Shown here in pieces: positions 1 to 18,501 of a stretch of 19,222 nt of DNA. The notes beneath the pieces are model-generated. The model saw only the letters and a list, made by a program, of their open reading frames with translations. It was not told where the DNA came from and made no database searches. How positions within the stretch are numbered: the stretch's first letter is position 1; every line of letters starts with the position of its first letter. The position numbers and the translations under genes were made by a program. The DNA lies in IMG/VR virus record IMGVR_UViG_2654588181_000006, positions 1-19,222 of that record; one strand, given 5' to 3'. This DNA comes from a virus. Lineage: Duplodnaviria; Heunggongvirae; Uroviricota; Caudoviricetes.

Positions 1-55
1 GGTATCCGTTCTGCTGAAGTGTCATGGCGTTGATTTTACGGTGACTCTTCGACAG

Positions 56-83
56 TGAAAAGAAAAAAGGCCGCAGAGCGGCC
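56..83 (-). terminator. Rho-independent terminator-like hairpin
   Basis: Plus strand 69-83 is ggccgcagagcggcc (6-bp GC stem, 3-nt loop), preceded on the plus strand by an A-run; on the minus strand the hairpin is therefore followed by TTTTTTCTTTT. Lies about 105 bp downstream of the minus-strand cargo gene ending at 190. Confidence 0.45.
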
Positions 84-95
84 ATAAACACAAAC

Positions 96-170
96 AAAAA
101 TCAATAAGTTAGGTAATTATCAAAGACTTACAGACACACAAAAACACAGCCAACCACAACAAATAACAGG
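96..170. repeat. A/CA-rich low-complexity tract at probable prophage boundary
   Basis: Sequence acaaaaatcaataag...acagacacacaaaaacacagccaaccacaacaaataacag is strongly biased to A and C, unlike the flanking coding DNA. Function unknown. Confidence 0.3.
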
Positions 171-189
171 GATGTGGTCACTTTGTGGA

Positions 190-585
190 TCATTCGCTCC
201 CCTCTTTTTCCTTATTTCGTTGAACGCCAATTGCGACACACGTACTAAGCAAATCTTTACATTTCTCTACGTCTTCAGACTTACGCAATTTGATGCTTTT
301 TACAGACTGCGGGCTACTGTCCGTAGCACGATACATCGTTATTTCAATATCATTTCGGTCTAAGAGTCCCATAATGGCTTTTGCAACCTCCACACCCTTC
401 TTCGCGAAATCAAAGAACAGAGCAAGTTTATATGGATTTTCGACGGAAAAAACTTCAATTTTGCTAAAACCAACATCGTGTAGAGAAAAATATTGCTCAA
501 CCTCATCTCGAAGTTCTGGATCGCATACAATGTCTATTCTCCAGTACTGACCTAAATGCAAATCGCTATTAACTGTTTTTTCCAC
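190..585 (-). CDS. Hypothetical cargo protein (131 aa), translationally coupled to the integrase
   Basis: Six-frame ORF 190..606 (minus). A strong RBS AAGGAGG (complement of 591-597) sits 5 nt upstream of an in-frame GTG at 585..583 and overlaps the integrase stop codon (596-598). The stretch is visibly AT-rich compared with the phage core. No family recognised. Confidence 0.55.
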   Translation of the reverse strand: MEKTVNSDLHLGQYWRIDIVCDPELRDEVEQYFSLHDVGFSKIEVFSVENPYKLALFFDFAKKGVEVAKAIMGLLDRNDIEITMYRATDSSPQSVKSIKLRKSEDVEKCKDLLSTCVAIGVQRNKEKEGSE

Positions 586-595
586 AACATCCTCC

Positions 596-1570
596 TTACC
601 CAGCAATAGGATTAAATCTCACCGCATCCTGCAAGTAATCCGGCGCAAGATGGGCATAAATCATCGTTGTCTGAATCTTTGCGTGCCCCAGAATTTTCTG
701 GAGCGTCAGAATATTGCCGCCGTTCATCATGAAATGACTGGCGAAGGTGTGGCGCAGCGCATGAACAGCCTGGCCGTCAGGAACATCAGGTGCGACCGTT
801 TTGATGACATCGCGAACCAATGGATAATCCAGCGTCGGAAACACCAGTTTCCCGCCCCGTTTTTTGATCTTTTCAAACAGGCTTTCAGAAATAGGAACGG
901 TACGGTTTTTGCTGTTCTTCGTTTTTGAAAAAGTGATTCGACAATGAAGAACACGGCGCTGCTCCAGTGCCGCTACCTCGCCCCATCGCGCCCCGGTCGA
1001 CAGAAGGATTTCGACAGCCAGCCGTTCATCGGGATTTTCAGCCAGTGCATCCAGCAACTGAACACATTCAGACTTACTCAGATATCCCATTTCGCGCTCG
1101 TTAACCTTCATTCCTTTAAGGCCTTGAACGGGGTTATCGTTAAGAAAATGGCCGGATGAGATGAGTGCGGTAAACATCGCGCTTAACGCCCCAATCTCTC
1201 GATTTATGGTGCTGGGCTGTATCCCCTGCTCTATCCTGGACACACGTAGCTCGGTGAGCATCGTTGTATTAAGTTTATGCACGCACGGGTCATCCATTGC
1301 TTCACTCAAGCGCAGCAATTTAAGGCGCGTGTTATGCCCTGACTTCATTAGCTGGCCGTGGTATTTCCACCACAAGTCAATAAGCACTGACAGAGGACGG
1401 CGATCAATAGAGTTTCCTTTCCACTCATTGTTATGCTGTTGCGCCAGCACCCACCGCTCATATAAAACTGCATCCGATTTCGTTTTAAATTTTTTGCGAA
1501 TGCGTTTGCCTTTACGCCCCTCAGGGCGCATGTCAAGAAGATACCCTCCCGGAATTGATTTTATGCTCAT
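596..1570 (-). CDS. int: Phage tyrosine integrase (P2/P4-type site-specific recombinase)
   Basis: ORF 596..1720 (minus). C-terminal catalytic signature recognisable: ARWGE (Arg), HALRHTFAS (His-x-x-Arg), TMIYAHL (Tyr). N-terminus GGYLLDMRPEGRKGKRIRKKF resembles the arm-binding domain. Start chosen at ATG 1570..1568 (MSIKSIPGGY); the upstream extension to 1720 would overlap the repressor gene, so the start is uncertain. Confidence 0.9.
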   Translation of the reverse strand: MSIKSIPGGYLLDMRPEGRKGKRIRKKFKTKSDAVLYERWVLAQQHNNEWKGNSIDRRPLSVLIDLWWKYHGQLMKSGHNTRLKLLRLSEAMDDPCVHKLNTTMLTELRVSRIEQGIQPSTINREIGALSAMFTALISSGHFLNDNPVQGLKGMKVNEREMGYLSKSECVQLLDALAENPDERLAVEILLSTGARWGEVAALEQRRVLHCRITFSKTKNSKNRTVPISESLFEKIKKRGGKLVFPTLDYPLVRDVIKTVAPDVPDGQAVHALRHTFASHFMMNGGNILTLQKILGHAKIQTTMIYAHLAPDYLQDAVRFNPIAG

Positions 1571-1619
1571 TCGTGAAACCCCAGCGTTACAAGACCACCA
1601 TGCCCCCAGCGTTCCATGA

Positions 1620-1928
1620 TTAGCCGGGCTGTGTACCAGTCTTGCGGGATTTTTGAGAAGACGATGTGTTTTCTGGCCCATCAGGGGAGAGAGAGGGACT
1701 GATCTGCCCAGCAGCCTCATTTGTTTTTCCCGTCATAAGCCAATTCATGTACTTAAAAAAGCGAGGGTGATTAACAATCTTGATAAGCACTTCGCCCCCT
1801 ATGTTTTCAATCCGCCCCGTTTCATAACGACGCAAAGTGCCGATAGGCACATCAATCAGGCCGCAAAATTCTTCGCGCGTTAAATCCTCTGATTCACGAA
1901 TCACTCTAATTTTTTCACCGATAAGCAT
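1620..1928 (-). CDS. Immunity repressor (P2 C-like, HTH)
   Basis: ORF 1620..1964 (minus) begins with GTG inside the operator; the more plausible start is ATG 1928..1926 (MLIGEKIRVIRESEDLTREEFCGLIDVPIGTLRRYETG), giving about 102 aa. HTH-like segment present. Position between int and the divergent cox matches the P2 int-C-cox layout. Confidence 0.75.
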   Translation of the reverse strand: MLIGEKIRVIRESEDLTREEFCGLIDVPIGTLRRYETGRIENIGGEVLIKIVNHPRFFKYMNWLMTGKTNEAAGQISPSLSPDGPENTSSSQKSRKTGTQPG

Positions 1929-1940
1929 TGACAGTGTTCC

Positions 1941-1986
1941 TATAAGTACACTAAGCTTGCGCACAAGGTGTACTTATAAGTACACC
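1941..1986. promoter_or_regulatory. Immunity-switch operator (three copies of an 11-bp half-site, including a 20-bp perfect palindrome)
   Basis: GGTGTACTTATAAGTACACC at 1967-1986 is a perfect 20-bp palindrome. Its half-site TATAAGTACAC recurs as a direct copy at 1941-1951. It lies in the 96-bp divergent intergenic region between the C-like repressor (start 1928) and the cox-like gene (start 2025). Confidence 0.6.
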
Positions 1987-2024
1987 AAGTCACAAACAAC
2001 CACAGATAGCGCAGGTTATCACAC

Positions 2025-2303
2025 ATGGCAAAAGTCCTGAACACACACGAACAGGCAGACTTTGAGCGTTTAGCAGCGTTCTATCCCTACCGCGATGAGC
2101 ATGGGTTACCAGTACTTGAAGAAAGCCTGAAAGATTACGCAAAGCGTACCAACCAAGCTGTTAACACAGTGAAAAGACAGGCTGACAGAGGTTCAATTCC
2201 CATCAACCAAGATGAAAAGAACTCAAGACGCACAGTAAATCTCTTCGCTCTTTTCCTGAAAACAATCAGGAGCGCAGAAAAATACGTGCAGATGACAAAA
2301 TAA
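2025..2303 (+). CDS. cox: Cox-like excisionase / transcriptional regulator
   Basis: 92-aa ORF, ATG at 2025, divergent from the repressor. The segment DYAKRTNQAVNTVKRQADRGSIPIN matches the pattern I recall for the P2 Cox DNA-binding region (EFAKLIGKSTGAVRRMIDKGKLPVI). Similarity is from memory, not a search. Confidence 0.7.
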   Translation: MAKVLNTHEQADFERLAAFYPYRDEHGLPVLEESLKDYAKRTNQAVNTVKRQADRGSIPINQDEKNSRRTVNLFALFLKTIRSAEKYVQMTK

Positions 2304-2317
2304 CGAGGTGTCATTTT

Positions 2318-2656
2318 ATGCTGAAGCAACGCCGTAATTTTCGTACCGGAACAGAACGCCACGCTAACCGTTTCACTACCAGTGCATCACGCAGCAACAT
2401 CCGCTACAGCCTGAGTGATACACACGCAACGCCGGATGGCTACCCAGTAAAACAAATCGGCGAGCACACCTGGCTGATTGAGAAAGCTGGAATCGTGATC
2501 CACAAATGCCCACGCAATCCGTTTACCGGAAACCGCATTTTTGCATTGAGCTGTGGCGACAATCAGTTCGGGCAGGATTTCACATTATACGAAGCACTTC
2601 GCACGGTTGATCGTCTGCTTCGCGGGCAAAGTTTTATTAAACAGGCTGATTTATAA
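2318..2656 (+). CDS. Hypothetical early protein (112 aa)
   Basis: ORF with ATG at 2318 preceded by GAGGTG (2305-2310); co-directional with cox in the early operon. No family recognised. Confidence 0.55.
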   Translation: MLKQRRNFRTGTERHANRFTTSASRSNIRYSLSDTHATPDGYPVKQIGEHTWLIEKAGIVIHKCPRNPFTGNRIFALSCGDNQFGQDFTLYEALRTVDRLLRGQSFIKQADL

Positions 2657-2666
2657 CAGGTGCTTT

Positions 2667-2954
2667 ATGACCAAAGACCATGCACAAGGTGTATTTATCC
2701 GTTTTATTGATTTTCGCGGTGAACTGTTATTACGTGCATCCGCTATTGACGGAGTGACTCCGGCGGGTAAAAACGGAGCCGACGAAGCCACTTACGTTTA
2801 TCTGAACGGCACGCGACTGCTTGTGGAACTTCCGTACCAGACCGTACGAGAAATCATTAGCGAAGCTGAAAAGGCACGCCAGGTTAATGGCGATGAACCC
2901 TATATCGAAATTATTTGTATGGATTCAGAAGCTGAAATACAGAAAGCAGATTAA
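2667..2954 (+). CDS. Hypothetical early protein (95 aa)
   Basis: ORF 2553..2954 overlaps the previous gene; internal ATG at 2667 (MTKDHAQGV...) follows its stop and is preceded by caggtg. Start inferred. Confidence 0.5.
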   Translation: MTKDHAQGVFIRFIDFRGELLLRASAIDGVTPAGKNGADEATYVYLNGTRLLVELPYQTVREIISEAEKARQVNGDEPYIEIICMDSEAEIQKAD

Positions 2955-2965
2955 AGGGCGTTGTG

Positions 2966-3208
2966 ATGGGCAAAGAATATAAAACTCTCATTAACAAAGC
3001 ACTTGAGCGTTTTTATTTTCGCTTAAGTGCATCAGGCGCTCATGCTGAACGTGCGGCCCGTGACTCATTGACCAGAGCAATCCGAAGTCTGTATGACGTG
3101 GCTTTTTATGCTGATGATCTGGATGCACTTAACGAACTTTCCGAGCTGATCTGTGCCGCAGAATGCGGGGAACATATTGAACCGTATAAGCTGGGAAATA
3201 TCGCATGA
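2966..3208 (+). CDS. Hypothetical early protein (80 aa)
   Basis: ATG at 2966 (the GTG at 2963 is the track start), preceded by aaagggcg. Stop overlaps the next ORF start in ATGA fashion. Confidence 0.5.
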   Translation: MGKEYKTLINKALERFYFRLSASGAHAERAARDSLTRAIRSLYDVAFYADDLDALNELSELICAAECGEHIEPYKLGNIA

Positions 3209-3342
3209 GTATATTTATCTCATGGCTTGTTCTGATTATTTCGGTGGTCTGCGCCATTGGGATTATGCGAATTATTAATTCAGTGAAAAAGATCGAGCGT
3301 TTTTCTCTGATGAATAACGATACAAATAAAGCATCAAATTAA
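3205..3342 (+). CDS. Small predicted membrane protein (45 aa)
   Basis: Not in the ORF track (under 60 aa). ATG 3205-3207 overlaps the previous stop (ATGA coupling). Translation MSIFISWLVLIISVVCAIGIMRIINSVKKIERFSLMNNDTNKASN has one hydrophobic helix followed by a basic tail. Confidence 0.4.
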   Translation: MSIFISWLVLIISVVCAIGIMRIINSVKKIERFSLMNNDTNKASN

Positions 3343-3410
3343 ATAAGAAAACGTGAAAACCATCCGTATTAACGGAGGTATTCGCACACGCAAATAACGG
3401 AGATACAAAA

Positions 3411-3821
3411 ATGCACGCAAAAGAAGAAGGTATCATCAGAGCACTGAAAGAAATTTCAAAGACAGAAAACGAAGTAGCGAAAAAAGCCGTGGCAAATGCA
3501 CATATGGACGTCGCAACCCACACACTGATAGTCGCAAGAGTCACGGCAGAAGCAGCCGAAATTATCGCAAAACAGGATGCTGAACTGGCGGTTCTCAGAA
3601 CACAACCAGTCACCGGACTGGATTTGTCTAACACCGGACGCCTTATTTACACAATTGGCTCGGAGCTACAGCGATACACCATTATCGCCGGATTACAGGA
3701 TAAATACCTGATCACTCCTCACCCCATAAGGGAATCAGAAATTCTGACAAATCTCCGCCTGATAGAACGCTCTCAAGCTGTATTCATTGATGACGCGCAA
3801 CGTGCCGTATTTAACGCATAG
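3411..3821 (+). CDS. Hypothetical early protein (136 aa)
   Basis: ATG at 3411 preceded by acggagat; co-directional in the early operon. No family recognised. Confidence 0.6.
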   Translation: MHAKEEGIIRALKEISKTENEVAKKAVANAHMDVATHTLIVARVTAEAAEIIAKQDAELAVLRTQPVTGLDLSNTGRLIYTIGSELQRYTIIAGLQDKYLITPHPIRESEILTNLRLIERSQAVFIDDAQRAVFNA

Positions 3822-3844
3822 GGTTACTGGACAAAGGGGGCGCA

Positions 3845-4048
3845 ATGGCAATTAAGCATTTTCCCGTCGTTCGCTTTACCTCCAGAGGGCGCGAATACGA
3901 GGTCGACGAACGCCTGATTACCACTATCGACAAACATCGTTCGGAAAAGGATGCACACCACATCTACCTCACTGACGGCACTTACTTCTGCGCCACCAAC
4001 GTGGCGCGAGTAAATCTTATCCGACAGGTACAGGAGCCACGCAGATGA
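3845..4048 (+). CDS. Hypothetical early protein (67 aa)
   Basis: ATG at 3845 preceded by AAGGGGG (3834-3840). Confidence 0.5.
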   Translation: MAIKHFPVVRFTSRGREYEVDERLITTIDKHRSEKDAHHIYLTDGTYFCATNVARVNLIRQVQEPRR

Positions 4049-4311
4049 CCATTCTGGACTACATCGCTACTCATCCGGGGTGTAGCGGCGGAGAGATCGC
4101 CGCAGCACTGAATACCCCAACCACAGCCATTAATGCTGAGTTACGCCGACTTTGGCGCGGCGGCTTAGTCATCAGAACAAACCGCAGCACAGGTGGTCGC
4201 GCTCGCAAAACAGGAGGCCAGGCTTCTTACCACGTAAACCCGATGCCGTTCGGGTGTAGCAATCCACTTACTCACATGTTTAACCGGCTACTGAAGGAAG
4301 CCAGAGCATGA
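4045..4311 (+). CDS. Hypothetical protein (88 aa), possible winged-helix DNA binder
   Basis: ATG 4045 overlaps the previous stop (ATGA) and is preceded by CAGGAG. N-terminus MTILDYIATHPGCSGGEIAAALNTPTTAINAELRRLWRGGLV resembles a winged-HTH; this is inference. Confidence 0.5.
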   Translation: MTILDYIATHPGCSGGEIAAALNTPTTAINAELRRLWRGGLVIRTNRSTGGRARKTGGQASYHVNPMPFGCSNPLTHMFNRLLKEARA

Positions 4312-4376
4312 GCACCATCAACCACCAGGAATTACATCCATCATCATTTCCGAGATGCCAACAGGCTCTTCACAGT

Positions 4377-4844
4377 TCAGAAACTGCACAACCAGCAAAT
4401 TAACCTTTCGGAGTAACGCAAATGTTCGCTGGCAGACAACCCAACAGATGCACTCGCTTTGTTTTTTGCGGGCCTGACAAACGCTTTCATGTATGCGCTG
4501 TTCGTTTCTTCCAGATGCAGAATGCGCTCAATGAGGCGTTCAGTACTCATGAAATCCCTTTGCGTAATCAGACGAAGGTAGCTCTGTTTCTGCCAGCACG
4601 CCCATTCGGCAACGCACTCAAACTTACTGCAAAACCAGGAAAAAACAAAAAACGCCAGCCCGCAAAGACTCATCAGGACGGGGAAACCTACGAGAAGAAA
4701 GGAGAATACCGCAGCAATCAGTGCCCCGGCGCGCAACACGGCAGCGGCTTTATTGCTGAGTATGAAAACCATCTCTTCCAGCCAGTAGCTGTACCACAGA
4801 TGGAAAAAAATCTTCTTGTCTGCTTGCTCCATAGCAACAGGCAT
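4377..4844 (-). CDS. Hypothetical membrane protein (155 aa) encoded antisense to the early operon
   Basis: ORF 4377..4850 (minus). ATG at 4844..4842 is preceded by GGAGG with a 7-nt spacer. The protein has a clear hydrophobic hairpin (AGALIAAVFSFLLVGFPVLMSLCGLAFFVFSWF). The plus-strand ORF overlapping it (4422..5537) is low-complexity and looks spurious. Confidence 0.55.
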   Translation of the reverse strand: MPVAMEQADKKIFFHLWYSYWLEEMVFILSNKAAAVLRAGALIAAVFSFLLVGFPVLMSLCGLAFFVFSWFCSKFECVAEWACWQKQSYLRLITQRDFMSTERLIERILHLEETNSAYMKAFVRPAKNKASASVGLSASEHLRYSERLICWLCSF

Positions 4845-5025
4845 AAACAACCTCCATTGTTAATAAACGCCGCTATCCTTCGGCGCATTCCATTTTTGCG
4901 CCGCGATTATACATACTTCAGCACGCAACACAAAAACCGCTTGCCAGCGCTCGTTGAGTCGGGTTACATTTCCGCTGCACCTCATAAAACGGGTGCCGGG
5001 ATTCTCAACCCGCTGACTACACACG

Positions 5026-5057
5026 CGCACAACCGCGCCAGCGGTTTTTTTGTGCGT
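5026..5057 (+). terminator. Terminator-like hairpin with U-tract
   Basis: ACCGC(5032-5036)-gcca-GCGGT(5041-5045) followed by seven T (5045-5051); flanking CGCACA (5026-5031) and TGTGCG (5052-5057) are also complementary. Short stem, so tentative. Confidence 0.3.
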
Positions 5058-5092
5058 ACTGTATTGCCACGTCTTATTCGCGTCAGAATTAT

Positions 5093-5168
5093 GGCGGGGC
5101 GTACGGGGCCGACTTCGGTCGGGCCGGGATCGTGTGTAGCCGGTGTTGAGAACCCCGTACGTCTCGCC
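5093..5168 (+). repeat. Inverted-repeat structured element with an inner C(UUCG)G hairpin
   Basis: GGCGGGGCGTACGGGG (5093-5108) pairs with CCCCGTACGTCTCGCC (5153-5168) at 14 of 16 positions, with a perfect 9-bp core. Inner hairpin CCGAC-TTCG-GTCGG at 5109-5122. The 10-mer GATTCTCAAC occurs at 5000-5009 and 5176-5185, and inverted (9 of 10) at 5145-5154. Confidence 0.35.
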
Positions 5169-5230
5169 ACCCCGAGATTCTCAACTCTGGATGGTGAGTT
5201 TTCAAAACTTACTATACACGAGGCCACGTC

Positions 5231-5461
5231 ATGGCAAACCGCAAGCAACAGCGCGCCCGCGCTGAGCGTATTCACATCCGCAGCGAAATCAACCGCAGAC
5301 TTTTTCGCGCAACACGCGTCGCGCAAATCATGCACATCAATATGTTGCATGAGCGCAGCCACGCACTATCAAACATTTATTCCGCCTCTGTTTTCAGCTA
5401 TCTGGCGGATGATCTGCACGAGCTTCAACAGCTCATCCAGCAGCAAAACAAACTCCATTAA
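5231..5461 (+). CDS. Hypothetical small basic protein (76 aa)
   Basis: ATG 5231 preceded by GAGG (5220-5223). N-terminus MANRKQQRARAERIHIRSEINRR is strongly basic. Lies immediately downstream of the structured region. Confidence 0.45.
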   Translation: MANRKQQRARAERIHIRSEINRRLFRATRVAQIMHINMLHERSHALSNIYSASVFSYLADDLHELQQLIQQQNKLH

Positions 5462-5533
5462 TTCCTGTTCCGGGCCTTTCCTGCACCTTGCGGCGGGAGG
5501 CCTTCGCACATCTGTAACAAGAGGATTGCCGCA

Positions 5534-5899
5534 ATGATTCTCGCCAACGACTTTCTTGAATACCTGCTCAACACAGAGCGTGATCTTGCCGCTCGCGTGC
5601 GTGATCGTTATGACATGTACCTGAAATCCCTGCCTGTACTGCAGCTCGCTGACGGAAAGATTGTTATTGATGGTCGCTACATGATTGACAGCCACGAGGG
5701 AAATTACAGGCTTTACCGCATTGAAGGTGGCACCCCGTCCGTTATTGGCATTTACCAGCGCCCATCCTCTGCAATCGTCGATGTGATTGCCGACAGCATC
5801 CGCATCACACATCGCCATGCCGACACAGAAGACACCGTGCTGGAAATTCAGCGGCTGGCTACAGTCTGCCGCGACACCCTGAATGGCATGACGAAGTAA
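5534..5899 (+). CDS. Hypothetical protein (121 aa) immediately upstream of gene A
   Basis: ATG 5534 preceded by AGAGGA; stop 7 nt before the gpA start. Confidence 0.6.
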   Translation: MILANDFLEYLLNTERDLAARVRDRYDMYLKSLPVLQLADGKIVIDGRYMIDSHEGNYRLYRIEGGTPSVIGIYQRPSSAIVDVIADSIRITHRHADTEDTVLEIQRLATVCRDTLNGMTK

Positions 5900-5905
5900 A
5901 TCACT

Positions 5906-8728
5906 ATGACGGCAGAGTACATCAGGGACTGGCAACAACCGCGCCACGCAGTGGGGCGTGAAGGAACGGGGATCCCCGCTCCTGAATCCGCGCTTTCCTC
6001 CTGGCTGGATGCCTACCGGGCTGAGAACGAGCGCCGCCAGGAAATGGCTGATGCGGCGTTCTCCGCCACACCGCTGGGCAACCTGATTAATAAAAGCCTG
6101 GACGCACAGGAAAAACAGGACAAAACCATCACACTGGCAGGAGACGCCAGAAAACAGGCACGCGGCGCGGTGGATGAAGCCATGGCCTCGCTGCGCCTGC
6201 TGCCGTCCTATCTGCGCGATCCGCTTATTCGCCACCTCTCCTTCCTGCGCAAAAAACAGGAAGCCGATCGCCGGAAAGGCAAAAAGAGCTGGCAGGCGGA
6301 ACGCTATGCACGCGGAACCCTGCGCAAAATATTCGAACGTCTGGATAGCACTGACGGACGCTGGCTGACACCGGGTTATCGCTCCCTTGCCGGACGCGAA
6401 CGCCTGGACGATTTGCTTTACCTGCCGCAGCTCAACAAACACCAGATACAGACGCTGGCCACCATGACGGCGGCGATGTTCAGCAGCACCTTCGAAAAAC
6501 TCTGCGATGGCTTTGGCGCGACCGATGGCGAGCTGACCATGGATGTAACCCTGAAGGCGTATCAGATGCTGGCCCGCATGGCGTTACACCTGCACGCCAT
6601 GCCTCCACATTATGACGCACTGACGACAGACAAAGACCGGAGGAACGAACCGGACACGGAGCTGCTGCCGGGCGCAATCCTTCGCCTGACCTGTGCGGAA
6701 TGGTGGAAACGCAAACTGTGGCTGTTACGTTGCGAGTGGAGAGAAGAACAACTCCGCGCCGCCTGTCTGGTTTCCAGAAAAACATCACCCTATCTGAGCC
6801 AGGACGCGTTAAGCGAGTTTCGCGCACAGCGCGAGAAAACACGCGATTTCCTGAAAAGTTTCATGCTGGAAAATGAAGACGGGTTCACGATTGATCTCGA
6901 GACAGTGTATTACGCGGGAGTAAGTAACCCGGTTCACCGTAAGGCAGAAATGATGGCCACCATGAAGGGGCTGGAACTTCTGGCCGAAGCCCGTGGCGAC
7001 AAAGCGGTGTTTCTGACTGTCACCTGCCCGTCAAAATACCACGCCACAACAGAGAACGGTCATCCGAATCCCAAATGGAACGGGGCCACCATGCGCGACT
7101 CCAGCGATTACCTGGTTAACACGTTTTTTGCAGCGGTCCGCAAGAAACTGAACCGCAACGGCCTGCGCTGGTATGGCATCCGCACGGTGGAGCCTCACCA
7201 TGACGGCACCGTGCACTGGCATATGATGGTCTTTGCTCATCCGGAAGAAATCGACACCATTGTGTCCCACACCCGCGATATTGCCATTCAGGAAGATCGT
7301 CACGAGCTGGGTGATGATATTACCCCACGCTTTAAGGCAGAGTACGTCGACGGTTCGAAAGGTACGCCGACCAGCTACATCGCCACCTACATCGGAAAGA
7401 ACCTGGACAGCCGCGCCGTGGGTGGCATTGACCCGAAAACAAGCAAGCCACGCGTTGATCACGAAACCGGAAAATCAATGGCCGAGAGCGTGGAACGCGC
7501 CATCGGCTGGGCGCGCCTTCACCGCGTCCGCCAGTTCCAGTTCTTTGGTATCCCCTCCCGTCAGGTATGGCGTGAACTCCGCCGCCTTGCCAGTCAGATG
7601 GCCCGCAACCCGGAAGGTCCACAACGTCTGGAAAATGACGCAATGGATGCGGTACTCGCTGCCGCTGATGCCGGGTGTTTTGCCACCTACATTGAGAAAC
7701 AGGGTGGCGTACTTGTTCCACGCAAGGATTACCTGATTCGCACCGCCTACGACCTCGCAGAAGAGCTGAACGATTACGGCGAGCAAAGCGTACAGATTTA
7801 CGGGATCTGGTCGCCACAAATCGGGGAATCTTCCCGCGTGTGCACGCACCCGGATAACTGGAAGCTGGTAAGACGTAAACCGGAAGCGGAAGACAGCGCC
7901 CGCGAAAATGGTTTTGACCTTCAGGGCGGCCCTGCCGCCCCTTGGACTCGTGGCAATAACTGTCCCCGTGTACAGGAAACGGACAACAACGGGACAGAAC
8001 AGCCGGAAGAACGGCCAGCACCGTGGCCGCAGCTCCCTGACGGCGTTGAAGTGAACGAATGGATGCGCTCACTGAAACGGCACGAACGCCGGGCGCTGAC
8101 GCGTTCGCTTCGTGACAAACAGGCAAAAAACAGCAGTGATGAAATGCAGAGCTGGACACAGAGCCGCAAACAGCAGCGGCCTTTGCCTGATAACCACGAA
8201 TTACTCGCTAAAGAATGGCGGGAGTCTGCTGAATCTCTCGGCCTGCATATCGGTGAACAACAGATGCAGCACCTGTTACGGGGCGGCAGTCTGTGCGTTG
8301 ACGGCAGCATCATTGCACCGCAGGGATTTGAAATTGTACGCAAACCGGATACCCGCCCGGACAGCCGAATCACGCAGCTCTGGCAGCGCCTGAGCCGTAA
8401 TCATGGCATAAGCAGCACGGAGATCCGCCATAACCCGGTCGCCAGCTATCTGGCACAGCTGGGGGCATCAGACCCTGAAGCCGCCGCACGCCTGGCATCC
8501 ACACTTCAGCAGGACCAGAACACCATGAAAACACCCGTTACCGTGCTTTCTGACATGCTGCGCGCCATCCGCGACGCAGAGCACGCACAGAGAATCAGTG
8601 AAACCACTGAACGCGCCAGCCGCAAAGCAGACCTGCTGCGGGGTAGCCTGACCAGTGGAAACAAAAAACAGACAGAAACGGGACTCACGAATCCCGTAAA
8701 TGAGCAAAAAACGCGCAGCGATATATGA
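5906..8728 (+). CDS. A: Rolling-circle replication initiation endonuclease (P2 gpA family)
   Basis: 940-aa ORF. HUH motif VHWHMMV at 7211-7231 and paired tyrosines in SYIATYIGKN (Y-x3-Y, 7376-7399) match the HUH relaxase/Rep catalytic arrangement of P2 A. Position after the cox-proximal early genes fits P2 synteny. Longer than the roughly 760 aa I recall for P2 A. Confidence 0.9.
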   Translation: MTAEYIRDWQQPRHAVGREGTGIPAPESALSSWLDAYRAENERRQEMADAAFSATPLGNLINKSLDAQEKQDKTITLAGDARKQARGAVDEAMASLRLLPSYLRDPLIRHLSFLRKKQEADRRKGKKSWQAERYARGTLRKIFERLDSTDGRWLTPGYRSLAGRERLDDLLYLPQLNKHQIQTLATMTAAMFSSTFEKLCDGFGATDGELTMDVTLKAYQMLARMALHLHAMPPHYDALTTDKDRRNEPDTELLPGAILRLTCAEWWKRKLWLLRCEWREEQLRAACLVSRKTSPYLSQDALSEFRAQREKTRDFLKSFMLENEDGFTIDLETVYYAGVSNPVHRKAEMMATMKGLELLAEARGDKAVFLTVTCPSKYHATTENGHPNPKWNGATMRDSSDYLVNTFFAAVRKKLNRNGLRWYGIRTVEPHHDGTVHWHMMVFAHPEEIDTIVSHTRDIAIQEDRHELGDDITPRFKAEYVDGSKGTPTSYIATYIGKNLDSRAVGGIDPKTSKPRVDHETGKSMAESVERAIGWARLHRVRQFQFFGIPSRQVWRELRRLASQMARNPEGPQRLENDAMDAVLAAADAGCFATYIEKQGGVLVPRKDYLIRTAYDLAEELNDYGEQSVQIYGIWSPQIGESSRVCTHPDNWKLVRRKPEAEDSARENGFDLQGGPAAPWTRGNNCPRVQETDNNGTEQPEERPAPWPQLPDGVEVNEWMRSLKRHERRALTRSLRDKQAKNSSDEMQSWTQSRKQQRPLPDNHELLAKEWRESAESLGLHIGEQQMQHLLRGGSLCVDGSIIAPQGFEIVRKPDTRPDSRITQLWQRLSRNHGISSTEIRHNPVASYLAQLGASDPEAAARLASTLQQDQNTMKTPVTVLSDMLRAIRDAEHAQRISETTERASRKADLLRGSLTSGNKKQTETGLTNPVNEQKTRSDI

Positions 8729-8773
8729 AGCGCGCACAAAACAGGCAAAAACGGGATTTCAGAATCCCGTAAA
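8665..8773 (+). repeat. Two 36-bp direct repeats, each with an internal hairpin
   Basis: aaaacagacagaaacgggactcacgaatcccgtaaa (8665-8700) versus aaaacaggcaaaaacgggatttcagaatcccgtaaa (8738-8773), 30 of 36 identical. Each contains the inverted repeat ACGGGA...TCCCGT; most mismatches fall in the loop. The first copy overlaps the 3' end of gene A, the second lies in the intergenic region upstream of the ParM-like gene. Confidence 0.5.
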
Positions 8774-8804
8774 CGATTAATTAATCAACATAAGGAAAAG
8801 CGAC

Positions 8805-9737
8805 ATGAAAATTTGTATCGACGACGGCTCCACCAACATCAAGCTGGCATGGACTGAGAACGGCGAACGCCGCAACGCCATCAGCCCGAACAGCTTCAAG
8901 TCGGAATGGTCTGCGCCGTTCGGCGGCACGCAGCCCGCGAACTACATGCTTGATGGCGTGCGCTATGGTTTTGATCCGGTCAGCGATCGCTTTGTCCAGA
9001 CGACCGACACGCAATACCAGTACAGCGATGTGAATGTCATTGCCATTCATCACGCGCTGGTCAAATCAGGCATCACGCCACAGGAGGTGGATGTGGTTGT
9101 CACCCTGCCACTGAGCGAGTATTTCGACACAAACGCACAGCCGGACATGGCCAACATCAACCGCAAAAAAGCGAACGTTATGCGCCCGGTGGAGTACCAG
9201 AACGGCGAAGCATTCACTATCCGTAACGTGCGGGTTATGCCTGAATCCATTCCGGCTGGCTTTAAGGCACTGGCTGACATGAGTCCGTTTGAATCCCTGC
9301 TGATTGTGGATTTGGGCGGAACCACGCTGGATGTGGCAAAGGTTCAGGGGCAACTGGCAGGTATCAGCCAGGTGTTTTGCGATCCACACGTAGGCGTTTC
9401 TCTGATGGCCGATGCCGTACTGTCGGTGATGGCCACTAACGGTATGCGCACCAGTCACCACATCGCCAATACCATTATCGAACATCGCCATGATGAAGCC
9501 TGGCTGCGCCAGCACATCCACAATGACGCGCATTACGCCAGCCTGATGGCGGTTATTCGTGAAAAGGAAGAAACACTGAAACAACGCGTGATCCGCGCGC
9601 TGGCGGGTTTTTCGGGTTACGGGAAGTTACAGGAACTGATGCCACTGGCGATCGTATGGCCTCCGCCACCGGGCGGGAGCTGGCCGCAACAACAGGGACC
9701 AGCGCCGGAGGCAGCGGAGCCGGGACCACGGGTGTGA
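8805..9737 (+). CDS. ParM/StbA-like actin-family ATPase, 3' end apparently truncated or replaced
   Basis: N-terminus MKICIDDGSTNIKLAW closely matches the ParM start (MLVFIDDGSTNIKLQW, from memory), with further blocks SPNSFK, QYSDVNV..HHAL, PESIPAGF, DLGGTT, IIEHRHD and LAGFSGYGK. After about residue 270 (near nt 9626) the reading frame turns proline-rich (LAIVWPPPPGGSWPQQQGPAPEAAEPGPRV) and overlaps the convergent tape-measure ORF, so the actin-fold C-terminus is probably missing. Confidence 0.65.
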   Translation: MKICIDDGSTNIKLAWTENGERRNAISPNSFKSEWSAPFGGTQPANYMLDGVRYGFDPVSDRFVQTTDTQYQYSDVNVIAIHHALVKSGITPQEVDVVVTLPLSEYFDTNAQPDMANINRKKANVMRPVEYQNGEAFTIRNVRVMPESIPAGFKALADMSPFESLLIVDLGGTTLDVAKVQGQLAGISQVFCDPHVGVSLMADAVLSVMATNGMRTSHHIANTIIEHRHDEAWLRQHIHNDAHYASLMAVIREKEETLKQRVIRALAGFSGYGKLQELMPLAIVWPPPPGGSWPQQQGPAPEAAEPGPRV

Positions 9738-12267
9738 TATTAATTGCGGGGGCAGGCTTACTGACCTGTGCAATCTTTCGCTCCTGCCACTCCCCACGAA
9801 CAGCAAGTGCGCGGGGCAGGTTCTTAAAGACAATATCGCCGGGGCCAATACGTTTTTTTGTCTCATCAACCAGCTTACCTGTGTTATCAGCAATTTTGCT
9901 GAGTCTGCGTAGCGTCCCGGTATTGCTGTCTGTGAGTGGTTTGTTGTCTTTGGGTTTATCACCCCCGGTGCCATTGCCATTTTCCACAGGCTTCGGCGGA
10001 TTGATTTTCGCCAGGTCCCCCTGAAGCAAGGCAACCTTGTCCTGAAGAATGGCCGCACGCTGTGCGTCTTCGATTTTCTTGCGCGCCCTTTCCGCTTCAT
10101 CCGGAAGGACGCCAAGTTTTTCAAGTATCCACGCCAGCGTATCCAGTAGCATTTTTGCAGGTGTCAGAACAAGCTGTAACGCACCGCCAAGAACGTTACC
10201 GAATATCTCGCCAGCACTGGTACATTTATCCAGCGTTTCCTTGCTGGACTCCATCGGTGACAGCAGCGATTTAAACCAGTTAAACACCTGACTGATCCCG
10301 CTTCCGATTGCGTCAAAAACAGGGCCAAACCGTTCAAAGGTTTCGCGCAACGGAGCCAGCCGTTCCATAATCCCGCTGAACACCCCGGCATAAAACGCCT
10401 TAATGGGTTCCCAGTATTTCCAGATGAGAACCGCCGCAGCCACAAACGCAGCAGCAATCAATCCGACCGGACTGAACAGCGCCCCGATAGCACCCCCCAG
10501 CAAAGAAACGGAACCCGTCACCATTCCCCATAGTGCTGGCAGGACCCTGACAGCATTCATTGATCCGGTCAGGAGAGAAAAACCAAGACGCAGTTTTGCC
10601 AGCGGGCCAGCAAGCACACCAATAGCCAGCGACAACGAGCCAACCGTTGCAGTCATTGCCAGCAACGCACCGCCTGCTATCAGTAGCTGGCGCGTCAGTA
10701 CCGGATGGGCCTGCGCCAGCGAGGTGATTTTTTCAAGCACCCGCGTGAGCCACTGCGTGACAGAACGCAGCGGACCGTCAACCAGATCACTGATGCGAAT
10801 ACGAAGACCTTCCCATGCGCTGTCGAGATTTTTCAGGTCCCCATCAAGATTATCGGCCATTACTTTTGCAACGCGATCGGCCTCTCCCCTTGCCCCCTGC
10901 AATTCTCTGGTCAGTTTTTGCAGCTCTCCTGAACCAGCCGCCGCAACAAGCGTCTGCAAACCAACGAACGCCTCTTCTCCGGCGATGTCCTTGAAGAAGG
11001 AAACCTGGTCCACCTGTCCGTATTTTTGTGTCGCCTTATAGAGATCAAGCAGCACATCCTCCATCGGGCGCATTTTGCCTCTGGCGTCAGCAACTGACAC
11101 TCCCAGCTCTTTCAGCGCATCAGCCGCAGCTTTTGGCGGTGATGCAAGGCGGGACAGACTTGCGCGCATGGCCGTACCAGCATCGCTTCCACGAAGGCCA
11201 TTATTGGCAAGCATCCCGGCCATGGCTGCCGCTTCTTCAAGACTGATACCAAGTTTTGCGGCAACCGGACCGGTATACTTCATGGTTTCGCCCAGCGCGC
11301 GTAAATCAGTATTGGTCCGGGTGAATGCCGCTGTCAGCGTATCGCCAACCCGGTCCATTTGATCGGCTGTCAGGTTGAACTGTGTGAGGATATTGGAGCC
11401 TATATCAGCCGTCTCGCCGAGTTCGACGCCACCTGCCAGCGCCATATTAAGAACACCGGGCAATGCGGCCTGAATGGCCTGCGGAGTAAAACCAGCCATT
11501 GCAAGAAATGCCTGTCCACTGGCGGCATCGCCTGCGGTGAACTGCGTTTCAGAGCCAAGTTTTAACGCCTGCTCACGCAGCGCCTTAAACTGCGGGCTGT
11601 TCTGGTCGATTCGCGTCAGTGCCTGAACGCGGGACATCTCTTTGCCGAACCCGATCGCAGGCTGCAAAAAACGCCCGGCAGCATAGCCGCCCGCCGCTGC
11701 CGCACCAATTGCCAGCGCACCACCTGTTTTCAGTTTTCCCGCTGTTTCCTGCGCGCGCGAATACCGCTCACGCGCCCGCGTTACACGCGCAAGCGCCTGC
11801 CGTTCGCGTTCAAGCTGGTTGTTGTACTGTTCGGTGCGTCTGATGGCCTGCTGGATGGTGTTATCGCTGCCTGTCAGGGAAATGCCGTGGCGTTTCAGCT
11901 CTCCGCCAAGTTCCCGCATTTTCTGAATTTCCCGTGTGCGCGATTCATTCAGGCGTTCAAGCCGGGTGCTTAACTGCTGCATCAGCTTTTGTTGTTTTTC
12001 GCTGAGCACTGTACCCGTGCGTTGTAACTGATTAAGGGCATTAAGCTGGCGTCGTGCTTTCAATATGCCAGCATCCGCTTTACTGACAGCGTCACGGGCG
12101 CGCTCAAATGAACGCGCCTGACGCTCGAGATTTTTGATCGCCCCCTGCGTTCGCTGGATGGAGTCACCAAACTGCCCCATCAGGCGGCAGGCGTTTTCGG
12201 CAGGCCGGGTCAGCCTGTCAACGGCGCTGAAAGCGACCCGGATATCAAGAGTCTTCATTATCTGCAT
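9553..12267 (-). CDS. T: Tail tape measure protein (P2 gpT-like)
   Basis: 904-aa ORF: N-terminal coiled-coil region, Gly/Ala-rich hydrophobic central segments, and position directly downstream of the E/E' chaperone pair with a 23-nt overlap. The last 70 or so residues are P/A/V-rich and read antisense into the ParM-like gene, so the native 3' end is uncertain. Confidence 0.85.
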   Translation of the reverse strand: MQIMKTLDIRVAFSAVDRLTRPAENACRLMGQFGDSIQRTQGAIKNLERQARSFERARDAVSKADAGILKARRQLNALNQLQRTGTVLSEKQQKLMQQLSTRLERLNESRTREIQKMRELGGELKRHGISLTGSDNTIQQAIRRTEQYNNQLERERQALARVTRARERYSRAQETAGKLKTGGALAIGAAAAGGYAAGRFLQPAIGFGKEMSRVQALTRIDQNSPQFKALREQALKLGSETQFTAGDAASGQAFLAMAGFTPQAIQAALPGVLNMALAGGVELGETADIGSNILTQFNLTADQMDRVGDTLTAAFTRTNTDLRALGETMKYTGPVAAKLGISLEEAAAMAGMLANNGLRGSDAGTAMRASLSRLASPPKAAADALKELGVSVADARGKMRPMEDVLLDLYKATQKYGQVDQVSFFKDIAGEEAFVGLQTLVAAAGSGELQKLTRELQGARGEADRVAKVMADNLDGDLKNLDSAWEGLRIRISDLVDGPLRSVTQWLTRVLEKITSLAQAHPVLTRQLLIAGGALLAMTATVGSLSLAIGVLAGPLAKLRLGFSLLTGSMNAVRVLPALWGMVTGSVSLLGGAIGALFSPVGLIAAAFVAAAVLIWKYWEPIKAFYAGVFSGIMERLAPLRETFERFGPVFDAIGSGISQVFNWFKSLLSPMESSKETLDKCTSAGEIFGNVLGGALQLVLTPAKMLLDTLAWILEKLGVLPDEAERARKKIEDAQRAAILQDKVALLQGDLAKINPPKPVENGNGTGGDKPKDNKPLTDSNTGTLRRLSKIADNTGKLVDETKKRIGPGDIVFKNLPRALAVRGEWQERKIAQVSKPAPAINITPVVPAPLPPALVPVVAASSRPVAEAIRSPVASVPVTSRNPKNPPARGSRVVSVFLPFHE

Positions 12268-12783
12268 TCCCGCTGCGAAGTGCCGCCCGCTCGCGCCAGC
12301 TAACCACTTCGCCGGGCGTCATCATGAAGATTTCGGCGGGCGACCAGTTAAAAATGGCGGCAATATCCGCCACCAGATCTTCGATGTGCTCAAAGCACAC
12401 CAGGGTGATTACGCTGCCGTCTCCTGCACGCTCTTCGCGCCAGAGTCTGGCTCGCTCATAAAATTTACAGCCACAGCGCACAACTGAATAAAATCGCGTG
12501 ACGACATTTTTTTAATCATCACTTCATCCAGTCGTGGCGAGGTCACGCGAGGCAACAGCGTAAACATGGTATCCGCTTTCAGATTCAGCACATCAGACAG
12601 CGACAGACCACGCAGGGATCCAGCCTGCTCAATAGCCCCGGTGATCTCCACATACGTGATTTTTTCGCCACCACGCTCAATTGGTCGGGTCAGTTTTACG
12701 CCACGTTCGACAGCCATATCCTCGCCTGCCGTCACATCATCCGCCACGGTGTTATTCCGGGTTTCAGTATCGATGTCTTTCAT
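12245..12783 (-). CDS. Tail assembly chaperone E+E' (programmed -1 frameshift product)
   Basis: An ORF in the -1 frame (12245..12481) overlaps the 3' part of E. That frame opens just after a run of seven A on the minus strand (plus 12507-12513), a plausible slippery site inside E codons ATT-AAA-AAA-ATG. The arrangement mirrors lambda G/GT and P2 E/E'. Confidence 0.6.
12409..12783 (-). CDS. E: Tail assembly chaperone gpE-like
   Basis: 124-aa ORF; ATG 12783..12781 preceded by AAGGAG with a 7-nt spacer. Located between FII and T and carries the overlapping E' frame. Confidence 0.7.
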   Translation of the reverse strand: MKDIDTETRNNTVADDVTAGEDMAVERGVKLTRPIERGGEKITYVEITGAIEQAGSLRGLSLSDVLNLKADTMFTLLPRVTSPRLDEVMIKKMSSRDFIQLCAVAVNFMSEPDSGAKSVQETAA

Positions 12784-12838
12784 CAGTTGTCTCCTTTTCA
12801 GTCAGAGGCGACGCACTGCGCCGCCTGCATATTACTTA

Positions 12839-13351
12839 TCAGCCAAGCCCAAGCGCGGAACGGATACGGTCAGGCACAATGTCCTTGCCGTCCTTCCGGT
12901 AGATGTGGTTCAACAGGTCGATTTCCCACAGCGGGCGATCGTTAACGCTCAGCTTGTAGTAGGTGTTTTTGACAGCGTAAGTGTGTGATGTGGCTTCGCC
13001 CTGTTTGGCTTCCCCCATATCAATTTCCGTCACACGCCCGCGCATCTCGATTTCATACAGATCACTTTCTGCATCGGTGTAGTATTCACCCGCAAAACGC
13101 AGCAACGTGCCGTCAATCGTGCCGCCATATTTAAGGAACAGCTCACGAACTGCGCCCCCCATGACAAAACTCGCATCAAGCGCAGAATCATCAAGACCGA
13201 GGTCGATACTCACCGCCCCCATCATGCCACCGCCACGATAGCTTTCAGTTTTGCGCGTCAGTTTAGGTGGAGTGACGGACGTCACCTTACCCACTTCGTT
13301 TTCACCATTCACAAACAGCGTAAAAAAGCGAAGATGTTTTGGTACAGCCAT
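12839..13351 (-). CDS. FII: Tail tube protein (P2 gpFII-like)
   Basis: 170-aa ORF. Segments TPPKLTRKTESYRGGGMMGAV and YYKLSVNDRPLWEIDLLN match the FII pattern I recall. Start overlaps the FI stop (TGATG). Confidence 0.85.
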   Translation of the reverse strand: MAVPKHLRFFTLFVNGENEVGKVTSVTPPKLTRKTESYRGGGMMGAVSIDLGLDDSALDASFVMGGAVRELFLKYGGTIDGTLLRFAGEYYTDAESDLYEIEMRGRVTEIDMGEAKQGEATSHTYAVKNTYYKLSVNDRPLWEIDLLNHIYRKDGKDIVPDRIRSALGLG

Positions 13352-14535: not shown

Positions 14536-14692
14536 AGCTTCAGCCCCTTGTATCCGTTAAATGATTCGGCAACAATCATCACCCACCACGCGCGTAATCT
14601 CACCCCTGCGCCGTTCTCCCGACCCGGCGACAACAAAAAGCAGTAACCCCCTCCGCACGCACATGCGACCATGTCGCACAGGGAGGGAACAG

Positions 14693-15802: not shown

Positions 15803-15890
15803 ACAACTTAAATGTATAAGCTAAGATATTAGCTGGAACGCTTGCTGCACAGAGGCAGCCCCAATTTGACAATCACTTCTATGACAGAAG

Positions 15891-16113: not shown

Positions 16114-16114
16114 G

Positions 16115-18425: not shown

Positions 18426-18501
18426 AAAGCATCAGTTCCTAGTACATATCGTGGCTTTTCTTACAATTGAGCGCATGGCCTGTTTTTCCATTTATTTGTA
18501 T

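Follow-up and report, generated by a model that had tools for sequence, protein, structure and literature searches.

The DNA analysed here, called the window below, is the whole stretch of 19,222 nucleotides (nt) at positions 1 to 19,222 of the IMG/VR virus record IMGVR_UViG_2654588181_000006. It holds the early region of a prophage from the P2 family, of P88 (Xuanwuvirus) type – its nearest records are P88-like phages and prophages of Escherichia coli – with the gene order integrase, P2-type C repressor, Cox, small early genes, a MarR-type gene, the region studied here, orf121, replication endonuclease A and ParM. Between the MarR-type gene and orf121 lie two small RNA genes with a putative promoter of their own, a gene for a basic protein related to the anti-repressor epsilon of satellite P4, a gene for a putative membrane protein on the opposite strand and a long plus-strand open reading frame (ORF) that runs across the region. 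An earlier inspection made from the letters alone, the sequence-only reading, had taken the antisense membrane-protein gene, the repeat-rich stretch beside it and the gene for the basic protein for one moron-like module with its own regulation. We consider it likely that the region consists of two separate units placed side by side: unit A, a P4-type RNA switch together with the epsilon-like gene (4928-5461), and unit B, a passenger gene (4336-4927); this judgement covers jointly the identity of the first and the separateness of the second. The evidence consists of the identities of the RNAs and proteins, the complementarity and co-variation of pairing sites, the conservation of a promoter, the boundaries of the cargo segment and the stop-free frame. 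The features concerned, numbered from the first letter of the window, are these:

4336-4927, no strand assigned: variable cargo segment; the homology shared with P88 and PV468777 breaks off at 4328-4335 and starts again at 4928.
4377-4844, minus: membrane-protein gene, 155 amino acids (aa), with ATG at 4844 and GGAGG at 4851-4855, 6 nt before the ATG.
4933-4906, minus: promoter signals of the membrane-protein gene, by consensus only: -35 TTGTGT 4933-4928, 16-nt spacer, -10 TATAAT 4911-4906.
4422-5537, plus: eta-like or Ash-frame ORF of 371 codons, with GGAG at 4410-4413, ATG at 4422 (18 nt after the TAA of a remnant ORF) and stop TGA at 5535-5537.
4941-4969, plus: putative sigma-70 promoter PisrK: TTGCCA 4941-4946, 17 nt, TTACAT 4964-4969; 7 nt before G4977, the inferred start.
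4977-5051, plus: IsrK or SeqA-type RNA, Rfam RF01394, 61.8 bits (gathering score 50); it holds b1, a1 and the terminator.
5002-5009 (core; extended 4997-5009), plus: site b1 in IsrK, with a copy of GATTCTCAAC at 5000-5009.
5017-5025, plus: site a1 in IsrK, CTACACACG.
5031-5051, plus: intrinsic terminator of IsrK, inside the RF01394 match: stem 5031-5046, U7 5045-5051.
5087-5174, plus: C4 or CI antisense RNA, Rfam RF01695, 76.8 bits (gathering score 45), a match to the full length of the model.
5131-5139, plus: C4 loop a', CGUGUGUAG (CGTGTGTAG), complementary to a1 and a2.
5145-5152, plus: single-stranded stretch b' of C4, GUUGAGAA, which pairs with b1 and b2.
5173-5223, plus: SeqC-type target region with b2 and a2, within the epsilon-like gene's leader.
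5178-5185 (core), plus: site b2 in this leader, with a copy of GATTCTCAAC at 5176-5185.
5212-5221, plus: site a2, CUAUACACGA (CTATACACGA), overlapping the Shine-Dalgarno sequence GAGG 5220-5223, 7 nt 5' of ATG 5231.
5231-5461, plus: gene for the epsilon-like protein, 76 aa, basic, pI 11.2; homolog of the P4 epsilon (E) anti-repressor, or 'derepression protein'.

Everything that the sequence-only reading had listed is present at, or a few bases from, the place it gave, down to the gene for a 76-aa basic protein at 5231-5461; what changes is what these things are. The 386 base pairs (bp) between the two protein genes (4845-5230) have the reported length but are not empty: they contain two RNA genes and a putative promoter, and a plus-strand ORF passes across them. 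A structured non-coding RNA or leader had been named as one alternative, and this is the one that proved apt: both an IsrK/SeqA RNA and a C4/CI RNA are recognised above their gathering scores by the two Rfam profiles, RF01394 and RF01695, that detect relatives of seqA and CI (2023 paper, PMC10111431). The hairpin with a run of seven T residues, which had been called terminator-like (stem 5031-5046, T7 5045-5051), is the terminator of IsrK. The imperfect inverted repeat enclosing a C(UUCG)G hairpin, which measures 17 nt (5092-5108 and 5153-5169, 88% complementary), is the closing stem of C4, whose mature form probably extends from about 5092 to 5170. The same tandem of IsrK and C4 was found with Rfam in P88, in PV468777, in a second P2-like prophage, in satellite P4 and in phage N15.

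Conservation of the C4 fold was judged on homologs gathered with a search pattern for the C4 core, which returned 120 viral contigs; as the pattern itself prescribed helix 3, this helix is uninformative. The Rfam structure comprises 27 pairs, and among 64 distinct C4 sequences 99.5% of the cells are paired, with 11 pairs changed on both sides. The covariation score is 0.403 as against 0.19 in shuffles, and slid controls pair in 34-46% only. The repeats co-vary across homologs as well, which together with the Rfam scores sets these features apart from coincidence. In 49 distinct loop types, each C4 segment is matched by perfectly complementary stretches of 7-10 nt, one upstream, in IsrK, and one downstream, each at a fixed offset; the downstream a site ends in the Shine-Dalgarno sequence. 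Watson-Crick runs between cognate loops and targets have means of 7.1-8.6 nt, compared with 4.7-5.1 nt for non-cognate pairs. In 34 P88-like sequences, nearly all the variation in an otherwise highly conserved stretch sits on six pairing sites.

The three copies of GATTCTCAAC that had been noticed from the letters – two direct, one inverted – find their place in this scheme as b1 in IsrK, b2 in the leader and, inverted, b' of C4; the direct copies are exact, and the inverted one (5145-5154, GTTGAGAAcC) agrees in 9/10 bases only. The second set of complementary sites (5017-5025, 5131-5139 and 5212-5221) had been overlooked, as had the ORF 4422-5537. As for energies, the a' loop pairs with the leader at 5206-5226 with -19.7 kcal/mol. 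The full-length duplex of C4 and leader comes to -53.8, against -40.6 +/- 5.3 for mononucleotide shuffles of the target, and that of C4 and IsrK is not distinct from its shuffles (40/500 as low); full-length duplex energies were judged uninformative, and loop-level pairing and co-variation were used in their place.

The a and b segments have been shuffled into many combinations, the 49 types being built from 30 a loops (sampled loci L008-L127; sites at -73/-88 and +33/+67 from the C4 core). Loops and targets together look like a combinatorial specificity code, with 49 types in the roughly 130 loci sampled. The b' of the window (GUUGAGAA) is identical to that of N15, and P88-like phages and P4-like satellites have the same system with loops that are partly similar. 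Cross-immunity at the RNA level, between helper and satellite or between phages, looks possible.

Upstream of the RNAs, the hexamers of PisrK are invariant in 22 distinct P88-like sequences, in which the spacer occurs in two very different versions. The promoter appears to correspond to the internal constitutive promoters PLE of P4 and PisrK of Gifsy-1. The sequence around it was inspected by eye for a LexA box, and only a half site (CTGT) is present. Just 5' of the PisrK -35 box, the 17-nt ACACAAAAACCGCTTGC (4928-4944) shows 88% complementarity to the IsrK terminator's 3' arm with the U-tract (5037-5053); it would be found only on transcripts arriving from upstream (those of the early promoter Pe), and could be an anti-terminator arm or a weak minus-strand terminator. 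Another sigma-70-like site, TTGCCA-17-AATTAT at 5064-5092, lies directly 5' of C4, and a start there would truncate C4 within its stem. Its AATTAT belongs to the conserved 5' flank of C4, which also carries the AUG used by orf45 of Gifsy-1. We did not adopt this site as a second promoter, as the whole stretch is conserved and conservation thus gives no judgement.

The product of the gene that follows is, on the strength of its sequence, a member of the P4 epsilon derepression family. It matches the Pfam profile PF25738 'Derepression' with 29.2 bits (gathering score 27), a profile on which P4 epsilon, the full-length founder, reaches 170 bits; in BLASTP, 50 aa of it align with P4 epsilon, 30% of them identical (E 4e-7), and it matches PHROG 3688 with E 2e-43. 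Variable sites in its frame number 31/24/52, a third-position bias. It had been guessed to be a small DNA- or RNA-binding regulator, which is not the best reading of it: P4 E/epsilon is an anti-repressor that binds the C repressor of P2 and has no DNA-binding capacity of its own (PMC2995052). The window encodes a corresponding partner, a C repressor (1620-1928, minus) with 41% identity to P2 C (E 1e-24) in which Trp64 and Thr67 are kept, the latter being the residue changed in the epsilon-insensitive sos mutant (PMC2995052). Window and P4 also share the order seqA, CI, seqC, epsilon and replication gene.

Taken together, RNAs and epsilon-like gene form a module present in 1154/5426 complete E. 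coli genomes (~21%), including O157 and UTI89, and the conserved core of P88-like (Xuanwuvirus) prophages spans 4928-5600. The structured region thus needs no new explanation: it is a known switch, common in E. coli. Neither RNA gene is annotated in any RefSeq record examined. In P88 (NC_026014), RefSeq places a coding sequence (CDS) for the 'hypothetical protein' gp13 at 5033-5221 on the minus strand, antisense to IsrK and C4 and probably spurious, and in PV468777 a misc_feature at 4420-4680, 'similar to ash family protein', covers the same two RNAs.

Unit B is of a different kind. Its minus-strand gene (4377-4844), with a GGAGG ribosome-binding site and a two-helix hairpin in the product, had been called well supported from the letters, and this is borne out by codon bias, by a full-length match to PHROG 6315 (E 7e-29) and by RefSeq CDSs, the same gene being annotated in other genomes. 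Its variable sites are distributed 36/12/14 over codon positions 3/2/1, the mark of a protein under selection. The N-terminal helix carries the motif W-x-S-Y-W-L-E, which together with other invariant residues is kept in relatives down to 21% identity; a single hydrophobic stretch of 43 residues (33-75) with a GFP turn follows, and the C-terminal part of about 80 residues is basic and helical. An AlphaFold2 (AF2) model (pLDDT 74.8) has a long helical hairpin and three short helices, and the 155-aa product is predicted to be an inner-membrane protein with a two-helix hairpin. The promoter-like site of the gene stands back to back with PisrK, the two -35 boxes being 7 bp apart; its TTGTGT matches 3/6 consensus bases, and the -10 box is kept, as TAGAAT, in the diverged L019 lineage. 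No terminator-like hairpin was found downstream of 4377, and the gene's 5' untranslated region is not unusually structured (z -0.2).

One could still suppose that this ORF is the shadow of a real gene on the plus strand, such as gp08 of Yersinia phage vB_YenM_42.18 (locus L005, NC_070913), where a homolog of the membrane gene with 29.7% identity by tblastn is unannotated and lies on the opposite strand wholly inside gp08 (221 aa; record positions 2950-3615). In all P2-like contexts a plus-strand ORF does cover the membrane gene fully, and one RefSeq record annotates the plus strand. Yet the third-position bias follows the minus frame, identity is higher in the minus frame in 15/15 pairs, and it is in the minus frame that the conserved motifs, the hydrophobic hairpin and the full-length PHROG match are found; in one homolog, moreover, the opposite strand is closed by 7 stops. 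A plus-strand gene casting a minus-strand shadow is hardly credible on these grounds.

The family of this membrane protein is tiny: a HMMER scan of 1.84 billion representatives yielded 11 clusters, none of them named, and a word-indexed homolog search returned close relatives only. The homology search that the sequence-only reading had proposed for both proteins thus placed the 76-aa protein in a known family and gave only unnamed relatives for the membrane protein. Members of the membrane-protein family always point backwards, inside or at the edge of prophage operons – in P2-like early operons of several lineages, in a Mu-like prophage and beside Dam methylase genes. The Mu-like case (locus L130, GCA_024597935.1, 4001-4462) is a 27%-identical member lying backwards between lysis and terminase/portal genes; it has 7 TTA/TCA codons, and its opposite strand is closed. 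That the protein is an exclusion or abortive-infection effector expressed in the lysogen is a guess from position and architecture, and a doubtful one. A SLATT-type effector with two transmembrane helices was considered and rejected, as the best Foldseek hits in BFVD (E 0.23-2.5, TM 0.24-0.52) are not significant and Pfam gives no hit.

As a passenger, the membrane gene occupies a variable slot. The cargo gene is found in 12/5426 complete E. coli genomes, compared with 1154 for the adjoining module of RNAs and epsilon-like gene. In P88 and PV468777 the slot holds other genes – Ea22-like, lipoprotein or hypothetical – and in other P88-like loci the sequence to the left of this same junction is of at least seven different kinds. 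On the left, the bases 4300-4335 are 100% identical to the junction between the winged helix-turn-helix (wHTH) gene and the Ea22-like gene of other genomes. In other P88-like phages an Ea22-like gene sits where the window has a remnant ORF, and locus L125 has a full 104-aa copy starting MSTINHQEL; judged by this match, the remnant is the beheaded start of an Ea22-like gene. The genes flanking the region are:

4045-4311, plus: MarR-type (wHTH) gene; its stop overlaps the start of the ORF 4308-4403 (ATGA).
4308-4403, plus: remnant ORF of 31 codons with TAA stop at 4401-4403; its first codons match the Ea22-like gene.
5534-5899, plus: orf121, positional equivalent of P2 Orf83, with a weak DUF5405 match.
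5906-8728, plus: replication endonuclease gene A (Phage_GPA, E 2e-131).

Homology of orf121 to P4 ORF151 was considered and rejected (BLASTP E 0.18).

These data bear on the idea of a single inserted moron module, in which membrane effector, structured region and basic protein were acquired together and regulate each other. It can point to a distant P2-like prophage (L004, gene A 52% identical) in which the block 4377-5334 is 91.8% identical, so that the membrane gene and IsrK, along with C4 and the beginning of the epsilon-like gene, moved together; to the back-to-back arrangement of the membrane-gene and IsrK promoters; and to L019, L106 and L125, where members of the family, 33-39% identical, lie directly upstream of IsrK. 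On the other hand, P88, PV468777 and about 55 other sampled loci have the RNAs and the epsilon-like gene without the membrane gene, the genomes with the RNA module number 1154 and those with the membrane gene 12, and the membrane family occurs without any C4 in the Yersinia P2-like phage, in the Mu-like prophage and beside Dam methylase genes. The break in homology at 4928 falls between the two units. Joint acquisition of all three parts is therefore very unlikely, and we regard the membrane gene as a rare passenger acquired separately. The description as moron-like holds for this gene – with its variable slot, its 12/5426 genomes and its own promoter-like site – and fails for the three parts as one insertion.

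The plus-strand early operon had also been described as simply interrupted by the antisense gene; this is not so, for a stop-free frame is kept across the whole region. The ORF 4422-5537 begins codon-aligned antisense to the membrane gene, passes through PisrK, IsrK, C4 and the target sites, crosses the epsilon-like gene in the +1 frame and ends with a stop that overlaps ATG 5534 of orf121 (ATGA). In nearly all of 123 unique loci this Ash frame is open from -215 or beyond to +313..+433 relative to the C4 core, and the other two frames are closed within the RNAs. Where P88-like loci lack the cargo, the stop codon of the preceding gene is no more than 15 nt from an ATG at -185. The frame is also open across three diverged epsilon variants, for which synonymous recoding as a null gives P 0.126, 0.015 and 0.05; as the lineages are homologous, these and the other open-frame P values are approximate. 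A 63-aa antisense CDS in the early operon of PV468777 lacks plus-strand ORF cover, a case we set aside as uninformative, the CDS being unverified.

Could the frame encode a functional Ash or Bro-network regulatory protein, whose conservation rather than that of RNA genes is seen here? Residues 182-273 match Phage_ASH (PF10554), and residues 164-296, over IsrK and C4, match the PHROGs 821/995/6928 'transcriptional regulator/repressor' with E 7e-19 to 4e-17; the corresponding 'cI' ORF of P4 (part of eta) scores 59.7 bits with Phage_ASH and gp32 of N15 28 bits. The frame is open in almost all homologs, it has a plausible Shine-Dalgarno sequence and ATG, and in Gifsy-1 translation of orf45 from the conserved AUG at the 5' edge of C4 has been demonstrated (PMC4825925). 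The pattern of variation speaks otherwise. Over IsrK, C4 and the leader the variable sites are spread 32/33/32, without codon periodicity; over the epsilon-like gene variation follows the epsilon frame, over the membrane gene the minus frame, where the plus-strand frame has the lower amino-acid identity in 15/15 pairs. Stems change in a compensatory manner, the hypervariable sites are the RNA pairing sites, and the immunity factor of P4 is an RNA (PMC10111431). We hence hold a functional Ash protein to be highly improbable: the ORF is kept open yet not conserved as a protein. Phage_ASH and the three PHROGs also match translations of SeqA and CI in the window (4965-5240), in P4 (8168-8584) and in N15 (2600-2890). 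These families may largely reflect conserved RNA plus an open frame, because the variation lacks codon periodicity.

Why, then, does the frame stay open over a gene on the other strand? In five early-operon lineages of the membrane gene (26-50% identical), 0/153 Leu and Ser codons are TTA, CTA or TCA, a count that leaves out one conserved TTA, which is the stop of the upstream plus-strand gene. Family members of other contexts have 9/61 (Fisher 8e-6), and the other genes of the window 105/821 (7e-9). Such a frame could be a by-product of codon bias or shared ancestry, untranslated and without a role. The same codons are rare in orf121 (0/121 codons) and in the tail tube gene (1/170), gene A has a stop-free run of 226 codons, the lineages are homologous, and the family member L134, which lies outside an early operon, is also nearly free of such codons. 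Against this stand the two differences in codon counts just given, and the neighbouring early genes, which have the highest TTA/CTA/TCA rates, 0.19-0.33. The sole retained TTA lies at a conserved site and in two different contexts provides the stop codon for the plus-strand gene upstream; the frame antisense to the membrane gene joins the eta-like frame unbroken in five loci; and the open frame of L134 lies directly downstream of a Dam gene in the same direction. A mere by-product is an appreciable possibility all the same, if well short of an even chance.

We favour, tentatively and as something close to an even chance though not quite that, the view that membrane gene and RNA switch are overprinted by a plus-strand frame selected solely to stay open, whatever its product. 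Were this so, the eta principle of P4 would extend to helper-type phages, and a passenger gene inserted backwards into an operon would have to evolve within limits set by the other strand. The absence of stops opposite such a gene would then be a testable example of selection for translation itself.

The prophage around the region is incomplete. A deletion is seen within 8805-12267, where the ParM ORF (310 aa; 319 in P88) meets the 3' end of the tape-measure ORF on the minus strand (904 aa; 935 in P88), and relative to P88 about 18 kb are lost between the two – the portal, terminase, capsid, lysis, baseplate, fibre, invertase and gpU genes. The element cannot make virions, since its structural genes are deleted. 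At the prophage end, past the gpD gene, a 712-aa AAA_13 ATPase (16115-18253, minus) has a full-length match to PDC-S06, a candidate defence family of PADLOC (E 2e-277).

How the parts might work together can be proposed by analogy with P4, P1 and Gifsy-1, and for the phage of the window we consider the individual steps fairly probable. In the lysogen, the early promoter Pe would be shut by the P2-type C repressor, while PisrK would fire at about 4977, most of its transcripts ending at the U7 tract to give an IsrK/SeqA RNA of about 75 nt. Transcripts that read through would be processed to a C4/CI RNA of about 78 nt, whose a' and b' would pair with a2 and b2 of the leader, masking the Shine-Dalgarno sequence of the epsilon-like gene and preventing its translation. 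The untranslated RNA would be terminated before orf121 and gene A, which would depend on passage through the switch. IsrK, which bears b1 and a1, might compete for C4 in cis or in trans and so set the threshold of the switch; in Gifsy-1, an excess of IsrK activates the anti-repressor (PMC4825925). Release of this block would let the epsilon-like protein bind the C repressor of the phage itself and derepress the prophage.

Transcripts from Pe would behave differently. Ribosomes on them could cross the cargo gene, the IsrK terminator and C4 in the 371-codon frame, so that expression of gene A would escape the RNA immunity; in passing they would suppress Rho-dependent polarity across the antisense insert and overcome both terminator and antisense block. 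Replication genes would then be on in lytic growth and off, from the internal promoter, in the lysogen. For P4, PMC10111431, summarising Forti et al. 1999, describes eta as translated only from the upstream promoter and coupled to the upstream gene, with its translation preventing immunity-dependent termination.

A number of points weigh against this account as a whole or against one of its parts. The U7 terminator precedes C4, so that C4 requires read-through or Pe transcripts. In the window itself the pairings are not all perfect: a'-a2 contains one G.U pair, where a'-a1 is perfect and the a'-a2 of locus L113 fully Watson-Crick, and the b'-b pairing has 8 perfect bp followed by an A.C mismatch. 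The PF25738 score of the epsilon-like protein is merely 2 bits over the threshold, and Phage_ASH matches the long ORF with 21.8 bits, under its gathering score of 26. The membrane protein has no Pfam hit at E 0.1 or better and no PADLOC hit, NCBIfam matches are far below threshold, and its AF2 model has no Foldseek match with E <0.1 in PDB or BFVD. Some other genes of the window likewise have codon-aligned antisense runs of 120-226 codons without a stop, and open-frame P values among homologous lineages are to be read as approximations. Expression, processing, termination and binding are all drawn from analogy. Finally, with some 18 kb of structural genes gone, the RNA switch in this prophage may be a relic.

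Among systems already described, the P4 immunity region (PLE, seqA, CI, seqC, eta/kil, epsilon, alpha) is the closest, having the same two Rfam families in the same order as the window. In both, each of two CI loops has an upstream and a downstream site to which it is complementary, a long ORF ('cI'/eta) spans promoter and RNAs, and an epsilon-family gene precedes the replication genes. In P4, according to PMC10111431, transcripts from the internal constitutive promoter are terminated via pairing with CI, and translation of eta from the upstream promoter overrides this. The host element here differs in being a P2-family phage with its own C repressor and Cox, not a satellite, and its replication gene encodes an A-type endonuclease, as opposed to the alpha primase of P4. 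The epsilon-like gene starts directly at the seqC-type site, where P4 has kil; it and the eta-like ORF are in different frames, and the latter runs on through to the next gene. The sites are spaced at -73/-88 in place of -147/-163, the specificity loops differ, and the eta-like frame extends 430 nt further upstream, through the antisense gene. P2 itself has no antisense gene at the equivalent position, as the sequence-only reading had said, and the RNAs of the module were not found there either.

In the immI region of P1 and P7 (c4 RNA, icd, ant) and in N15 (CA RNA, antA-C), an RNA of the C4 family is processed from the transcript of the genes it controls; its two loops pair with sites in such a way that the ribosome-binding site of the first downstream gene is masked, and the output is an anti-repressor against the primary repressor. 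The protein controlled in the window is, by contrast, of the epsilon family and not of the Ant/KilA/Bro type, and the module lies inside the early replication operon, not in a separate immunity locus.

With the IsrK / STnc1160 / orf45 / AnrP system of Gifsy-1 in Salmonella, the window shares an IsrK-type RNA with a promoter of its own, here a putative one, and a terminator that is leaky there and would be so here, and an anti-repressor as the output, predicted in the window (PMC4825925). There, the read-through mRNA is translationally silent, IsrK sequences pairing with downstream sequences, a stable processed RNA, STnc1160, lies downstream of IsrK, and SeqA of P4 is named as a structural homolog of IsrK (PMC4825925). 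Gifsy-1 is lambdoid, however, with a downstream effect through AntQ, and its anti-repressor is reached by translational coupling via orf45, started at the AUG on the 5' edge of C4; the frame equivalent to orf45 is open for 148 codons in the window and does not end at the start of the anti-repressor.

The membrane gene resembles morons such as tin and old of P2 or sieB and rexB of lambda: it is small, lies on the opposite strand with its own promoter-like site, is present in a few relatives only, abuts a recombination junction and encodes a membrane protein. It differs from them in that no terminator was found and in that searches of Pfam, PADLOC and structures gave no similarity to characterised exclusion or defence proteins; it is also embedded in the reading frames of its host operon, not placed between them.

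RNA switch and epsilon-like gene thus belong to described families, with a mechanism of the class of P4, P1 immI, N15 and Gifsy-1, and the stop-free opposite strand might be the one feature that is new. No paper describing an RNA switch for P88-like phages was found in a literature coverage that was incomplete. What the comparison adds is that the early operon of the P88-type phages themselves contains the immunity-and-derepression cassette also found in satellite P4, with a homolog of epsilon and a P2-type C repressor that has the residue of the epsilon contact. This shared cassette points to a common origin of the tool with which the satellite derepresses its helper and the switch with which the helper is itself induced.

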